Positions 18,001-24,000 of a stretch of 64,000 nt of DNA are shown here, in pieces. This DNA is from an uncultured delta proteobacterium (GTDB lineage: Bacteria > Desulfobacterota > Desulfobacteria > Desulfobacterales > SG8-13). A program made the position numbers. The stretch's first letter is position 1; every line of letters begins with the position of its first letter. The stretch is taken from NCBI GenBank assembly GCA_963848135.1, contig CAWKCK010000003.1, positions 558,001-622,000 of the forward strand, in the 5' to 3' direction.

Positions 18001-21000
18001 GCGCCGTCGGGGTGTTACGCATCCGAGTAGAGACCAATCCGATCGACTATTTCAAAGAAGACACTTCTGTCAAACGCCATTTCCATGACATACACCGGGA
18101 TTTGTCCGGGAGTTTTCCCATAAATGTCACCGTGGAAAGTAAGGATGACGACTACTTCGAAAACCCCCAAAATGTCGCCGAGATCGAACATCTCCAACAA
18201 TTTCTGGAGACATTGCCCGGCGTTGATAAAAGCCTGTCATTCGCTGATTACATGAAGCTTGTCAATTATGCACTCAATGAATTCAATCCGGAATTCTACG
18301 CGCTTCCGGCTGAAGGCTTTGAAGCGCGAATGGTGATAAACAATTACGCCACCATGCTCGGCGAGGACGTGTTCACCAGTTTCATGAGTCAAAATTTATC
18401 ACAGGCGAACATCGTGCTGCTGACCCATCTTTCGAGCTCCCGAGAATTTCTGCAAACCCGAGACCAAATCATTAAATTCGCAAGACAAAATATGCCCAAA
18501 GATCTTACCGTGGATGTCACCGGTTTCGGAATCGTCATTTCAGCAAGCAGTCATCAATTGACTACCGGTCAAATCAAAAGTCTTTCACTGACGATGGTTC
18601 TGGTTTTTGCCATCATGTTCGCCTTATTTCTCTCTTTCAAAGTGGGATTGATCGCTATTATACCAAACATGTTCCCGATTGTCGTCAACTTCGGGATTAT
18701 GGGATGGCTCGGCTTAGAACTGTCGATGGTGACCAGTCTTATCGCCAGCATCGCCATTGGACTGGCAGTAGATGATACCATTCACTATCTGTTCCGATAC
18801 AACCGCGAATTCAGAAAGGATCTCGATAGCAACCGGGCGTTGAGTGAAACATTGAAACATGTGGGCCGGCCGATCGTATTTACGACGTTGACCATCTGTC
18901 TTGGTTTCTCAATTCTTATATTCTCCAGTTTCAAGCCGACGGCTGTATTCGGCATTATGATGGCCATCACAATGCTCTCGGCCCTTGTCGGAGATTTGAT
19001 TCTGCTACCCTCACTTATGCAGCACGTGCAACTGGTGACCTTGTGGGATTTGGTTCGATTAAAACTCGGCCAGGAACCTGCAAAAGGAATTCCTCTTTTT
19101 AAGGGCCTTTCACGAACCGAAGTGCACTACCTCATTTTGGCCGGATCGTTAAAAAATATCGAAGCCGGTGAAGTTCTTTTTCGAAAAGGCGATCCCAGCA
19201 ATTCGATGTATACGATCATTTCGGGTCAGATGGACGTGCTTGACTCTGTCACTGACGACACGACGTGTTTGGGATCAGCCAGTGATCGGTTGATCAATCG
19301 GATGAAAGCCGGTGATGTACTGGGTGAAATGGGTCTTCTCCGATCGGCACCACGGTCCGCTACAGTTGTTGCCTGCGAGCCGGTAGAACTTTTGCCGATA
19401 AATTGGGCGATGATCAAGCGTTTGCAATGGTTGTACCCGCCGACGGCTCGGAAATTTATGTACAATCTTTTGACGATCCTTTGTAATCGGGTCGAAAGAT
19501 TGACGACGTGCCTTGCCGAAGTTAAGGTTCTCGACGATGCGACCGGTTTGTGCAACAGGGAAAACTTTATTAAACTCCTGAATGGCGAAATCCATCGTTC
19601 GCGATGCTATAAAAACAACCTCTCTCTCTGCTTGATGACGATTGAATTTGAGAGCACTGACGGTGAACTCGACTTATGGCAACAAGAGAGCATACTGCAG
19701 TCTGTCAGCGAGACACTGATCCACAATGTTCGCGCCTTTGATGTCCTCGGGCGTTGTCATCGTCAACTCTTCGGTTTGTATTTTCCTCAAACACCGCGAG
19801 AGGAAGCCCGCGAGATCTGCATTCGTTTACAAAGCTATTTACAGAACAAGCATTACGATATCGATGGGCTCCAACTGAAGATAACTCTGGGCTTTGCGGG
19901 TTTAGATGACGACCAGATAGCGTCCGCAGATGAATTTATGAAGAAAGCCGTCGAAATGGTTGAATGATCCGTGAGAGTTGGAACCCGCCGGGCTACATAT
20001 TCGGTCGTCACGACGACCCGAATTCCTCATCCTGCAGGCCCAACGGATGACTCCTTGAACCGATTTATTCGCAGCTCGTGGGAGACGGGCGAAAGATTCG
20101 ACGCAAAGTGCGTTGACCATGCGAGCCTCCATTTGGTGAGCCCTTCAGGCTAAGGTCCCTTGAGATGGCTATTGCAACCCAGCTTTTTGGAAGAACCATA
20201 GAAAAGGGTGAAACAATCTTTCATCAGGGTGATCCCGGTGATGAGATGTATATCATTCAATCCGGTGCGGTTGAAGTCTCCAAGTTACGGCAAGGCCGCA
20301 AGGTTGTTTTAACCCTGCTGGAGAAAGGTGATTTTTTCGGCGAGGTCGCCCTGCTCGACAGCAAACCCCGTTCAGCCACGGTTACCGCGATAACCCGCAC
20401 GCGATTGTTGCCGCTAGCGCGCACTACTTTTCTGAAAAGAATCGCATACAATCCAGATGTTGTCTTACGCGTTCTTCGCGCCCTCAGCCGGCGAGTCGAT
20501 CGGATGACCGAAACGATCCGATCGTTGATTGATAGCGATGAAAAGTTACGCCAAAAAGTGTTCTCCAGGAGTTATGACCTCCAAGACGATCAATTACTGC
20601 CTGGCGATAGCATTGTTCAAACCAACAGGAGGCGCCCGGAGTTACCTCAATCAAAGGCTGAAGAGACCCGGCGGGTGTCCCCGCCAATTTTCGGAACAGC
20701 GCGCCATTTTAATTCTCAAAATCCCATTTTCTTCCAACCCAATCAAATTATTTTTGAACTCGGTGATGCCGGCCACAATATGTACCTCATCATCCAGGGA
20801 GTGGTTGAAATTTTTCAAGCCGGGCAAAACGGAGATGACGTCCGCATGGCTCTGCTCGGTCCGGGTGATTGTTTCGGAGAAATGGCATTGATTACCGGCG
20901 ACCCGCGTACGGCATCGGCAAGGGCAATTTCAGCGGTGGCGCTTTTACCGGCGAATCAAGAAGACATGTTCAACGGTATCCGATCCGATCCGGAAGCGGG

Positions 21001-24000
21001 TCTTTTTTTCCTCCAGGTCTTAATTAACCGCCTGCGAACCATAACAGAGGCATTGGAACAGCCCGAGAAATCTTTGCAGACGCTTCGGCAGGCGATTATA
21101 CCGGTTATCAAAAGAACCGAGTAGTGTCTCCATCGGCATCAGTTCGCTTTCTTCCTGTGGCGGTTGTACCGCCGTTTTCGTCCGTAATCCACAAGAACTG
21201 AGTTGGATCACCGGCAATATTGATGTCCGCTATTGTCCAATGTTGATGGATCAGGAAAAGATTACGGAGGTAAATTTCGCTGTCGTCGATGGTGCGGTTC
21301 GAACTCGCAAAGACGAAGAAAAGCTCACCGAGGTGCGCCGTAAGAGCCGTTATTTGATTGCTATGGGGACATGTGCCGTTTTCGGCGGAATTCCTGCACT
21401 GGCCAATTCCTACGACCTCGAGGAATTGATTAGCGAGAGTTATGGGCGAACCACGGATCCGTTTTTATATTACCTGGCAGATAATGGGCTTGGAAATGAA
21501 TCTGATACCCCCGACATAGAGGCGCACCTCCAGCGAAAGGTCCGCAATTTATCCGACGTTGTTAAAGTAGACTACTTCTTACCCGGTTGCCCTCCTGCCC
21601 TTGATTTACTGATCGATCTACTAAAGGAACTGAAAAGCGAGCACCCTAGTGGCGCCAACCGGCAGATCGTATGCACGGAATGCGCACGAAACCAAAAAAA
21701 AGGTTCGATTGACACCATTCGGGTATCGCCGACAGCGGATATCGACAAAGAGTCATGTTTCTTGTCCAAGGGCATCCTTTGTTTGGGATTTTGGACGCGC
21801 GGGGGGTGCACGGCAGCATGCCCCGGGGGGGGACTTACGTGCTGGGGTTGCCGTGGACCGTCCAACAACGTCATCGCCAAACTCAACAAAGGAGAAACCC
21901 TTGAAGAAGTAATGCTGCATTCACTCGCTCGCCGTATGAAAAAAGATGAATCGAAGATCAAGCTCCCGATAAAGATCCTTCGACTCAAAGGTGGCAGTGC
22001 CCTGAGTTTTGATCAGAATTTTATCAAGGATGTGTCGAAAATAAGATGAATGATAACCTGATATTACGAAAAGCGACCCGCATCGAGGGGAATGCCGACA
22101 TTCATATAGAATACGAAGAAAATCGGTTGAAGTCGGCACGGTTTCAGATTTATGAGTTTCGCGGTTTCGAAAAATTCGTCAGTGGTCGCCGGGCTGAGTG
22201 GGTACCGCAACTGGTATCACGCATTTGCGGGTTATGTTCGGTCGCTCATCAGGTGGCAGGTATACGGGCGGTTGAAAATGCCCTGGGGATCGAAGCCGAT
22301 TCGTGCACGAACAAGCTGAGAGATGTTCTCGTGCTGGCTGAATGGATCAGCAGCCATTCTTTGAGTTATTTTTTTCTTACCGTACCTGATTTCGTGGGTG
22401 AAAAAGGCGGGGTGTTTGAATTGCAAAAATATTACCCCGAAATCTTCAAGGAGGCTTTTGAACTGCGTCAGGCCGCGATGAAGATTATAACTCTATTTGG
22501 GAAAAGAGAAACACATCCGGTAACAATCGGTTTGGGACGATTTCTAGACCCGCCCGGTGCTGACGAATTGAATCTGGCCTGCGATATTGCGGGTGTTGTT
22601 AAAGAAAAACTTCGGACGATCCTTTTAAAAGTATCTTCCCAGTGGCGACTGGAAAAAGCCATCGAATTTCCAGAGGATCTCACGGTCCATTTTGTGGCCT
22701 TGTCAAAAGGTAAAGAACGCGACGACTTTTTTGTGTTTGACCGCAAAGGACAGTTGGTCAGACAGTTTTCGGTCGACGAGTTCGAAGACAATATCGAAGA
22801 AATGAGAGTTGACTGGAGCTTGTCCAAGATTCCTTACATCCATTCACTCGGCTTTCCCGATGGCATAATGCTGGTGGGGCCCCTGTCCCGAAGTTTTCTT
22901 GAAAACGGTTTTCTTTCCGATCCTGAGATCAGGCAGTTTGGAATCAGTGACATACTTATGGATCGCTCCAGTATTACTCTTGAAAGCTACGACGTATGTC
23001 GACTTCTTGAAATGTTTTGGTCAGCAAAAAGAATTGAATTCTTGTTGAAAAGTATCGGCAATTTTGGCTCTCCGCCGGAACCGGATTGGTCGGTTGCAGG
23101 CCAAGGCCTTGGTGCATTGGAAGCGCCGCGGGGACTCTTGATTCACAAGTACCTATTGAAAAACGGGTGTGTCGAGAAAGTCAGGTTGCTGGTAGCCACG
23201 CAGTTTAATAACGCGTTCATTAATTTGCTTATTACCGATCTGGCCCAGCGTCACAGCCACGGCGGGCAACTTACCACCAAAGGAAGCCGGCTAATCGGAC
23301 GTTGCATACGGTTATTGGATCCCTGTTTAAGTTGTGCTACCCATTAACTCATTTCCGTCCTTATATGGTCTTATTCCTCAAATTAGGCCTCAACCCGAGG
23401 AATCGCTTGTGCGGCATACGAAAGTTTGCCTCCGCACATTTTCTTGATCTTGCAGAAAATGGCACTTTTCTGGATCGGAAACGGACCCGTTTTCTTTATA
23501 GTTACTTGGAAACGATTTTTTACATCAATGATCTCAATCCGCCCAAGTTGAGCAGGACAATGCCAAAAGCAGATAAAAGGGCCGGTAAAATTTTACGGTT
23601 TTTCATCATTTTTCTTATCTTCGCATCCTTTAATTTAGGGTGCGGCCCGAAAGAATATGTCTTCAGCGGCCGCACAATGGGTACGAACTATACCGTTAAA
23701 GTGGTCAGCGGTTTTTTTCAGCAGGATGCGGGGTTGCAGGAAAAGATAAATGCGCGTCTTGAAGAGATCAACCACAGCATGTCCACGTATATCACAGACA
23801 GCGAAATCAGCCGATTTAATACCCAAGTCTCCGTTGGCGAAAAATTCAGAATATCAACCGATTTCATGCAAGTCATGCAGATGGCACAAAAGATTTACCT
23901 TCTTTCCGACGGCGCTTGGGACGGAACCCTGAAGCCGATGGTTGACCTCTGGGGATTCGGCCCAGCAGGAACTCGGCGCATGCCTCCGACCGCGGAGGAG

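Follow-up and report, generated by a model that had tools for sequence, protein, structure and literature searches.

Tandem cyclic-nucleotide-binding domains fused to a [NiFe]-hydrogenase small subunit in a sediment sulfate reducer: a possible hydrogenase switched by cAMP or cGMP

Hydrogen is a central currency in anoxic sediments and, to our knowledge, few routes of H2 sensing or post-translational hydrogenase control are known, namely group 2b with a histidine kinase, the putative group 2c and the putative sensory [FeFe] enzymes. In a 64-kb stretch of DNA from a sediment sulfate reducer (the whole stretch is called the window here), two cyclic-nucleotide-binding (CNB) domains precede a [NiFe]-hydrogenase small subunit across a one-base break. 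This raises the questions of whether the two halves are one protein, whether the break is real, and what such a protein would do. Current annotation reads either 'F420-non-reducing hydrogenase small subunit' or 'cyclic nucleotide-binding domain-containing protein', and either name conceals the other half. If the reading given below is true, a widespread family whose electron-transfer subunit has canonical cAMP/cGMP receptor domains would connect second messengers directly with H2 metabolism, and a hydrogenase with built-in CNB domains would couple the hydrogen metabolism of this organism to second-messenger signalling. The features of the locus are collected in Table 1.

Table 1. Features at and around the hydrogenase module (window coordinates)
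Feature	Position	Strand	Basis or remark
hypF	frameshifted in G run ~13241-13246	+	within maturation genes 11688..16414, upstream
hypD	14049-15140	+	maturation gene upstream
hypE	15278-16414	+	maturation gene upstream
MMPL/RND-type transporter with C-terminal cNMP-binding and degenerate GGDEF domains	16794..19967	+	Pfam
Fused gene, 5' part: two CNB domains, long C-helix, linker; TAG 21122-21124	20165..21124	+	ORF, Pfam
CNB domains within 5' part	about 20192-20443 and 20729-20980	+	
Break: one extra base vs all in-frame relatives	21119..21126	+	translation, alignments
Fused gene, 3' part: Mvh/Vhu-type small subunit, 4 + 8 Cys, three Fe-S clusters	21126..22049	+	
Large subunit, 433 aa; ATG overlaps small-subunit stop (ATGA)	22046..23347	+	ORF, Pfam, motifs
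ApbE-family flavin transferase, lipoprotein signal peptide	23560..24600	+	neighbour in close relatives only

The ORF listing of the window gave a 319-aa ORF at 20165-21124 with the two cNMP-binding domains, whose translation terminates in ...IPVIKRTE followed by the TAG. The +1 frame is free of stops from 21045 to 22049 and reads ...SVSIGISSLSSCGGCTAVF... there; counted from the first ATG of this small-subunit frame, it yields a 269-aa ORF (21240-22049). As sequenced, 21240 is the earliest start codon, and the SSCGGC motif of the small subunit (21150-21167) lies 5' of it. The motif therefore falls in the called gap, as the survey's finding had stated, and two proximal-cluster cysteines cannot be translated from the sequence as given. 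When read through with an X at the break, the joined protein is 627 aa long and matches single proteins of 612-643 aa over its full length, including P0003 (627 aa, 76% identity) from end to end. In blastn alignments of 20165-23347 with the relatives L169, L088 and L001, the sole gap in ~3.2 kb was an extra window base at the junction. This base, at ~21121, shifts the frame by +1 relative to the in-frame relatives. Contigs from runs X1 and X2, each from a related strain and thus not reads of the source strain, also lack one base at 21121. The X1 contig is messy at this place, with four further bases absent at 21132 and a 204-base skip. The 627-aa relatives and the 3.2-kb alignments bear out the earlier proposal of one gene with a one-base split. 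Among the 45 related loci with enough upstream DNA and a match to the motif pattern, 41 have an unbroken ORF of at least 300 aa preceding the cluster motif. A programmed frameshift was rejected since the gene is in frame in relatives and lesions of other kinds account for the remaining interrupted loci: L162 is a chimera, L113 has a deletion, the L089 contig has several frameshifts, and L155 has a nonsense codon in a rearranged locus.

The break is probably a sequencing or assembly error. This had already been guessed, and the guess is strengthened by frameshifts in four further genes of the window, those for HypF, GatA, MutL and an ISL3 transposase, which make such an error the likelier cause of the break in the hydrogenase gene. 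The hypF gene is broken in a G6 run, where G7 would restore WGGEVL, and is intact in L001 (778 aa); the transposase gene is split at an A8 run. Another possible explanation, which we consider unlikely, is that the frameshift is real and the hydrogenase gene is a recent pseudogene in the source strain, a question independent of function. The break lies outside any homopolymer, and with no start codon before 21240 the two proximal-cluster cysteines would be missing from a protein made from the gene as sequenced. The module is also patchy in the genus, with a match in 6 of 15 congeners and an intact ORF in 3 of those 6; G407 has lost ~2 kb of it, and at the same junction the rearranged L155 locus is interrupted by an in-frame TAA. 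The losses in G407 and L155 make a recent inactivation in the source strain conceivable. Against this, five genes are broken in 64 kb with the hydrogenase gene counted, housekeeping gatA and mutL included, and two of the five breaks fall at homopolymer runs. Apart from the break, the 3.2 kb is free of other lesions in comparison with three relatives, and the catalytic and cluster residues are all intact.

Both hydrogenase subunits were well above the Pfam cut-offs. PF01058 scored 89.7 bits on the small subunit against a cut-off of 27 (Oxidored_q6, E 1.7e-25), and PF00374 scored 86.6 bits on the large subunit against 25.8 (NiFeSe_Hases, E 2.4e-24). The large subunit has RIEGN and RICGLCSVAH and ends in DPCLSCATH, so that its nickel motifs are intact, as had been claimed. 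In the small subunit, C331, C334, C403, C475 and eight further cysteines align with MvhG, and across 107 family members each of these twelve Fe-S cysteines is either invariant or conserved to at least 90%. The best PDB matches were MvhA (E 2.7e-56) for the large subunit and MvhG (E 3.8e-49) for the small one, and the best NCBIfam matches were VhuA and VhuG, both below the equivalog cut-offs (168.1 vs 800 bits and 163.7 vs 450 bits). In a tree whose labelled references are 1d, 2b and 3d only, the fusion family is one clade (SH-aLRT 100), far from HoxC (2b) and HoxG (1d). Judged from these matches, the enzyme is Mvh/Vhu-like, that is, group 3c-like, in line with the survey's description of the small subunit. 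It is a cytoplasmic, two-subunit enzyme, and Mvh/Vhu is likewise cytoplasmic.

The likeness to Mvh/Vhu has limits. The L2 motif of MvhA is identical (DPCLSCATH), yet the MvhA-like representatives aligned are only about 32-35% identical to the large subunit, and Mvh/Vhu differs in the two N-terminal CNB domains found in the family here. Mvh has RxEGH where the large subunit here has RIEGN. The latter was rejected as a family hallmark, as its last residue differs greatly from one group-3-like representative to another and is N in the sister representatives P0156 and P0157 too. Deposited MvhA chains extend ~24 residues beyond the final His, whereas the large subunit stops exactly at the His of DPCLSCATH in 44 of 44 family loci. 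With no such extension there is no C-terminal peptide to cleave, which explains the missing protease beside the module that the survey had noted. The whole genome has one HycI protease, which adjoins the other hydrogenase. Mvh/Vhu also has MvhD and Hdr partners, but neither the window nor any of 13 longer loci had genes for MvhD or heterodisulfide reductase next to the module, and no conserved electron-acceptor gene (MvhD, Hdr, diaphorase or FrhB) was seen in those 13 loci. Ten genes with an MvhD domain lie elsewhere in the genome.

The survey had also allowed for the putative, diguanylate-cyclase-linked group 2c, which resembles the present case in its proposed link between a hydrogenase and a second messenger (HydDB table) and in the degenerate GGDEF domain upstream here. 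This assignment was ruled out by the L2 motif, the PDB and NCBIfam matches and the tree. L2 is DPCLSCATH and not SFDxCLVCTVH, the group 2c consensus in the part of PMC4853749 on which we drew; the closest relatives belong to group 3, and a GGDEF neighbour is present in the closest relative only. HoxBC of Cupriavidus necator (group 2b) is similar in that HoxC has no tail and a non-His residue in RxEGx, and in its location near hyp genes and its association with signalling. However, the L1 motif of HoxC ends in Gln, its L2 is DPCMVCTVH, it falls on a distant branch with group 1, and HoxBC has a histidine-kinase partner and no CNB domains. Group 2b was rejected on the distance from HoxC in the tree, an L1 motif ending in His and the lack of an adjacent histidine kinase.

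The fusion is not peculiar to this genome. Both the CNB and small-subunit domains were present in 119 of the best 120 matches of the joined protein and in all 120 listed clusters of longer-form proteins, and two members add an FHA domain, which upholds the earlier claim of a large family with the same fusion. The family was also seen in 75 metagenome loci, and no description of a CNB-hydrogenase fusion was found in the literature searched. Within a phylum sample, at least 2 of 401 genomes, the source genome and G196, matched at E <= 1e-40; three candidates were scored per genome, so members may be missed. G196 was rejected as a family member, being a kinase fusion and not a CNB fusion. A full-length-alignment scan of genome contigs was swamped by the generic cNMP motif and gave only L001 and a partial L002 as members. 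Unfused close homologues were rejected as well: the matches of at least 40% identity were pieces, mostly on contigs of 2.5 kb or less, in a check that left out P0303 (4.5-kb contig) and P0323 (12-kb contig).

The phosphate-binding cassette of PF00027 consists of Gly-Glu and Arg-[ST]-Ala. Pfam matched cNMP_binding twice in the N-terminal part (E 3.4e-50), and the cassettes of both domains are canonical (FFGEVALLDSKPRSAT and CFGEMALITGDPRTAS). Among full-length members, G59, E60 and R69 of the first domain are present in 107 of 107 and A71 in 106, and in the second domain G238 and E239 in 107 of 107 and R248 and A250 in 104. The best PDB matches of the tandem region were PKA-R and PKG, which have the same tandem arrangement, and the CNB-enzyme fusions Bd1971 (CNB-EAL) and mycobacterial Pat (CNB-acetyltransferase) scored too. 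In these proteins a CNB sensor stands N-terminal to the regulated domain, and PKG, Bd1971 and Pat share this order with the protein here; they differ in that the effector here is a metallo-redox subunit, not described as a CNB target in the literature searched. Sequence cannot tell cAMP from cGMP as the ligand.

It is very unlikely that the domains bind NAD(P)H or some nucleotide other than a cNMP as a substrate or activator site. The precedent is HoxI of the Cupriavidus soluble NAD-reducing hydrogenase (SH, group 3d), encoded within the SH operon of pHG1: a CNB-fold subunit of a group 3 enzyme, for which the section of PMC12319191 that cites Burgdorf 2005 proposes NADPH as the ligand. However, HoxI is a separate single-domain protein with a His (PHSLS) in place of the cyclic-phosphate-binding Arg, and it is only 22-25% identical to the CNB domains of the family. 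The family has a fused tandem, each domain of which retains PR[ST]A in 104-107 of 107 members, and cyclases and PDE-like genes recur beside the module.

The neighbouring genes were compared among loci. The upstream transporter does end in a cNMP-binding and a degenerate GGDEF domain, as reported, with no GG[DE]EF motif in the latter. The order of transporter, hydrogenase and ApbE, which had been noted in a near relative, held in the close relatives L001, L088, L131 and L151 and not in more distant members; the transporter was a neighbour only in L001, the closest relative with upstream DNA. The transporter, ApbE and Etf adjoin the module in close relatives only and were rejected as partners on this account. 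ApbE is an exported lipoprotein, which makes it an unlikely partner of the hydrogenase, and the flavinylation motif [ST]GA[ST] was not found in any neighbour; the ApbE gene is probably unrelated. Distant loci carry instead cyclases, phosphodiesterase-like genes, cNMP-dependent kinases and PP2C. Of the 28 loci flanked by 3 kb or more, 13 had signalling neighbours (cyclase 8, PDE-like 5, Ser/Thr kinase 6, PP2C 3); the search queries came from these same loci, and with near-duplicates removed the count was ~8 of ~23 loci. For comparison, 16 cyclase and 22 cNMP domains are spread over the 6.03 Mb of the source genome, a far lower density than near the module.

The best reading of these sequence data, held with middling confidence, is a hydrogenase switched by cAMP or cGMP. 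Class III cyclases would make the cNMP and phosphodiesterase-like enzymes would remove it, and other members often have genes for such enzymes beside the module. Binding of cAMP or cGMP to the tandem CNB domains would move the long C-helix of CNB-B, and this motion would reach the first strand with the proximal-cluster cysteines through a linker of ~20 residues. The hydrogenase might thereby be turned on or off, through altered catalysis or because a redox partner reaches the distal cluster more or less readily. The large subunit would mature without an endopeptidase, and the electron partner would be encoded elsewhere. An AlphaFold2 model of the intact relative P0003 had confident domains and poor linkers, and its pTM of 0.50 makes it unusable for placing the CNB domains relative to the clusters. 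With two genes and maturation without a protease, the module should be suitable for a test with purified protein.

The absence of an electron-acceptor gene conserved beside the module suits a sensor as well as an enzyme. A possible but doubtful alternative is that the module is a sensor of H2 or redox state in cNMP and Ser/Thr-kinase signalling and not a metabolic enzyme. H2 would reduce the Fe-S chain, and the CNB domains might relay both the small-subunit state and the cNMP level to signalling partners encoded nearby, for instance cNMP-dependent Ser/Thr kinases, PP2C phosphatases, cyclases or phosphodiesterases, much as HoxBC acts on HoxJ. The signalling neighbours of distant members and the FHA domain of two members are consistent with this. 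In the source genome and L001, the module directly follows hypFDE and lies less than 10 kb from the only other hydrogenase. The large subunit shares its lack of an extension and its non-His RxEGx residue with the sensor HoxC (RVEGD, no tail), but both traits also occur among other group-3-like representatives. Moreover, L1 has the terminal His of working enzymes in 42 of 43 family loci, where HoxC has Gln, the family is separate from HoxC in the tree, and CNB domains are usually inputs, N-terminal to the regulated domain. We can only tentatively suggest that these proteins form a third type of hydrogen-sensing [NiFe]-hydrogenase, with its origin in group 3 rather than group 2, that joins the H2 or redox state of its Fe-S clusters with cAMP/cGMP in a single polypeptide and feeds Ser/Thr kinase, phosphatase and FHA signalling. 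If so, anaerobic sediment bacteria would be able to read out hydrogen through a second messenger, and G196, in which a Ser/Thr kinase domain is fused to another, distinct Mvh-like small subunit beside PP2C and FHA genes, would hold a sister invention. However, with its normal tail and MvhD partner, the kinase fusion of G196 is a different case.

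The first open reading frame (ORF) of the module, in which Pfam recognized two cyclic-nucleotide-binding (CNB; cNMP_binding) domains (E 3.4e-50), ended in ...QAIIPVIKRTE followed by TAG at 21122-21124. The +1 frame was open already from 21045, read ...SVSIGISSLSSCGGCTAVFVRNPQELSW... and contained an Oxidored_q6 domain (1.7e-25); the third ORF matched NiFeSe_Hases (2.4e-24). The break was read through with an X (TAGT=X), and the resulting 627-residue protein, P0002, aligned end to end with single public proteins, including P0003 (76% identity, 627 aa) and many others of 612-643 aa. 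Across the junction, the sequence is IKRTDRVSIGISS in P0004 (95% identical) and IKRTEIVSMGISS in P0003. When the 3,183 bases were compared by blastn with locus L169 (genome G406), locus L088 (metagenome) and locus L001 (a MAG), identity was 81-87%, and the sole gap in each of the three alignments was one base at the junction, with the extra base on the window's side. The 627-aa relatives and this lone gap confirmed the survey's finding that the CNB ORF and the small-subunit ORF are one gene split by a single base. The SSCGGC proximal-cluster motif did lie between the called genes, as the survey had it, since its position (21150-21167) is 5' of the first possible start codon in the +1 frame. 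Contigs from two sequencing runs, which come from related strains and are not this strain's reads, were also compared. The X2 contig omitted one base at 21121. The X1 contig, from a different study, omitted this base as well, but it lacked four bases at 21132 and then skipped 204 bases, and it was given little weight.

Coordinates of the module, of the other broken genes and of further features in the window
Feature	Position	Strand	Remarks
ORF 1, two CNB domains	20165-21124	+	319 aa
ORF 2, small-subunit part	21240-22049	+	269 aa counted from first ATG
ORF 3, large subunit	22046-23347	+	433 aa
HypF, split	11688-13355 and 13208-13990	+	break in six-G run, ~13241-13246
ISL3 transposase, split	41744-43023		break at A8 run, ~42491-42498
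GatA, split	58291-60091		break near 59620; ...SKGFG in one frame, continuation in another
MutL, split	60904-61626 (HATPase part) and 61541-62875 (DNA_mis_repair and MutL_C part)		break near 61560-61626
Group 1 large subunit	8720-10384	+	in-frame TGA at 8924-8926
SulP-family transporter	39366-41624	-	STAS and cNMP-binding domains
MvhD-domain protein, end	1-343		785-aa open frame

The break is probably an assembly or sequencing error. Five genes in 64 kb were broken, the hydrogenase gene and four more, of which two are housekeeping genes and two were interrupted at homopolymer runs. The splits in HypF, the ISL3 transposase, GatA and MutL thus suggest that the assembly, which has 6.03 Mb in 18 contigs, is indel-prone. 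Reading seven G instead of six in the HypF run restored the conserved WGGEVL reading, and HypF of L001 was unbroken (778 aa). These breaks speak against a recent real lesion in this strain, which we consider rather unlikely. In favor of a lesion, the hydrogenase-gene break is outside any homopolymer, and the small-subunit part as sequenced has no start codon before the cluster cysteines. The module is also clearly dispensable, as any match to it was found in only 6 of 15 same-genus genomes and an intact fused ORF in 3 of those 6 (G406, G404, and G412). In genome G407, a loss of ~2 kb has removed the small-subunit domain together with most of the large subunit. Metagenome locus L155 (about 2180-2190), whose copy also looks rearranged, carries an in-frame TAA (KASD-stop-ISIGFSS) precisely where the CNB and small-subunit parts meet. 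The G407 deletion (locus L173, G407:C22, about 1501-2632) corresponds to window 21108-23149; at its joint, which has a 9-base overlap, the CNB region continues into the final 200 bases of the gene for the large subunit.

The fused architecture was found throughout the family. Both PF00027 and PF01058 were present in 119 of the best 120 matches to the whole protein, the exception being a fragment, and, when the small-subunit part was searched by itself, in all 120 of the longer relatives listed, two of which add an FHA domain. In P0106 and P0108 (726 and 732 aa), an extra FHA domain is N-terminal to both CNB domains. Proteins of the length of the small-subunit part were pieces where identity was at least 40%; these were followed, at 37% or less, by ordinary unfused Mvh-type proteins. 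A metagenome scan yielded 75 loci. An uninterrupted ORF of at least 300 aa preceded the cluster motif in 41 of the 45 loci with enough upstream DNA and a matching motif pattern, and the remaining four were broken contigs. The large subunit was immediately downstream of the fusion gene in the metagenome loci. Members carried the source-given names Desulfobacterales, Deltaproteobacteria, Nitrospirota, Thermodesulfovibrionales, and Pseudomonadota. A full-text literature collection with few subscription journals yielded no account of a [NiFe] hydrogenase fused to cNMP domains.

Among solved structures, the large subunit was closest to the MvhA chains 9sw2_F (2.7e-56) and 5odc_F (1.3e-50) and the 7t2r large subunit (4.1e-54). 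F420-reducing, NAD-reducing and sulfhydrogenase enzymes came next, and the match to group 1 enzymes was confined to the two ends. MvhG was the best match of the small-subunit part (3.8e-49), and this alignment retained the four cysteines of the proximal cluster as well as eight others. Across 107 full-length members, each of the twelve is either invariant or conserved in at least 90%, so the full three-cluster wire is present. VhuA and VhuG were the best NCBIfam models, with scores far under the equivalog cut-offs. The hydrogenase may be called 'group 3c-like' on the basis of the PDB and NCBIfam matches, the labelled references of our tree being only 1d, 2b, and 3d. The C-terminal nickel motif, DPCLSCATH, is identical to that of MvhA. 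This motif departs from SFDxCLVCTVH, the consensus given for group 2c in a section of PMC4853749.

A tree of 95 large subunits was built from 17 family sequences (window and loci), 72 representatives with a length of 400 aa or more, up to P0231 (shorter and later ones were left out), G196, L160, the window's group 1 enzyme, and the labelled references HoxG (1d), HoxC (2b), and HoxH (3d) from pHG1 of Cupriavidus necator. The family formed one clade with P0152, P0153, P0154, and P0193 (SH-aLRT 100) on a long stem (0.71), and its sister was P0156 with P0157. The window's group 1 enzyme grouped with HoxC and HoxG on a distant long branch. The large subunit stops directly after the His of DPCLSCATH in all 44 family loci whose 3' end is complete, whereas the nearest non-family representatives continue for 13-28 residues and deposited MvhA chains are ~24 residues longer at the C-terminus. 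The single HycI-type protease in the genome adjoins the group 1 enzyme. The RxEGH position read R[IV]EGN in 43 of 43 family loci, but little weight was given to it because it varies widely in group-3-like enzymes.

The CNB region best matched, as a tandem, PKA regulatory subunits and PKG. Among the 107 full-length members, G59, E60, and R69 of the first domain were present in all, [ST]70 in 104 and A71 in 106; in the second domain, G238 and E239 were present in all and R248 and A250 in 104 each. From work on CAP and PKA, we take these residues to form the phosphate-binding cassette. In a structure model of P0003, two helices, one long (276-298) and one short (304-311), separate the second CNB domain from the first strand (321-327), which carries the cluster cysteines; the pTM was 0.50 and the domain arrangement is unreliable. 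The one known hydrogenase subunit with a CNB fold is HoxI of C. necator, for which a passage of PMC12319191 (citing Burgdorf 2005) supposes NADPH binding; a literature search directed at HoxI gave nothing further. A similar NADPH-binding role for the module's CNB domains is very improbable, and HoxI, 22-25% identical, has a His in place of the cassette Arg (PHSLS).

Beside the module, the window carries hypF-hypD-hypE, an MMPL transporter that has a cNMP domain and a degenerate GGDEF domain, and also ApbE, EtfB, and EtfA. Only close relatives share these neighbors (L001, and the downstream side in L088, L131, and L151). A lipoprotein signal is present in ApbE, whose surroundings showed no flavinylation motif. 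Scanning 13 longer loci of more distant members with Pfam revealed class III cyclases in L104 (three), L120, and L121, and, directly downstream of the module in L107, L120, L121, and L124, a metallo-beta-lactamase of 255-260 aa that matches class II cAMP phosphodiesterases. Ser/Thr kinases with a cNMP domain (L105, L130), other kinases and PP2C (L105, L120, L121), a cNMP-GAF protein (L107) and two SulP-STAS-cNMP transporter genes directly downstream of the hydrogenase (L097) were also seen. No gene of these kinds was found in L090, L111, L116, L132, or L152. The window's own SulP sulfate-permease-family transporter has the same architecture as the L097 pair. By tblastn, with queries taken from the same loci, such signalling genes were detected in 13 of the 28 loci that had 3 kb or more of flanking DNA (~8 of ~23 after removal of near-duplicates); for scale, the 6.03 Mb of the window's genome hold 16 cyclase and 22 cNMP domains.

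Since ligand-making and ligand-removing genes recur beside the module, the putative ligand site is strongly constrained, the CNB domains are inputs N-terminal to the part they would control, and the catalytic and electron-transfer residues match those of a working enzyme, the module may well be a hydrogenase switched by a cyclic nucleotide. A cNMP bound by the N-terminal CNB domains would then switch the enzyme. The main alternative, an H2 sensor, is possible but doubtful. It is consistent with the signalling proteins among the neighbors and the lack of a conserved acceptor gene near the module (MvhD, Hdr, diaphorase, and FrhB genes were absent from all 13 Pfam-scanned loci), with a large subunit that is tail-less like HoxC, and with the FHA-bearing variants. 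In genome G196, a distinct Mvh-like small subunit is fused to a Ser/Thr-kinase domain, with PP2C and FHA genes beside it, which also points to sensing; however, the tail of that enzyme is normal (26 residues), its motif reads RIEGH, and it has an MvhD partner. Encoded with this kinase fusion (607 aa; locus L087, G196:C32, 7976-12891, minus strand) are its large subunit, which is 478-479 aa long, and, upstream, a Fer4+MvhD protein; PP2C and two FHA proteins are encoded close by.

The neighboring periplasmic-type (group 1) large subunit has a TGA at the position of the second cysteine of its N-terminal nickel motif (RSCGV-TGA-TYTH), with a hairpin 3' of it and a normal C-terminus, DPCIACGVH. The TGA was in the same place in 6 of 6 relatives' loci, and most relatives down to 77% identity had one TGA. 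It probably encodes a selenocysteine that serves as bridging ligand (CxxU type); according to a section of PMC13582414 (citing Baltazar 2011), this is known from only two group 1 sequences. MvhD-domain (FlpD) matches were found on several contigs of the genome, and 5 of 10 contained one in-frame TGA, probably selenocysteine as well. One MvhD-domain protein ends at the window start.
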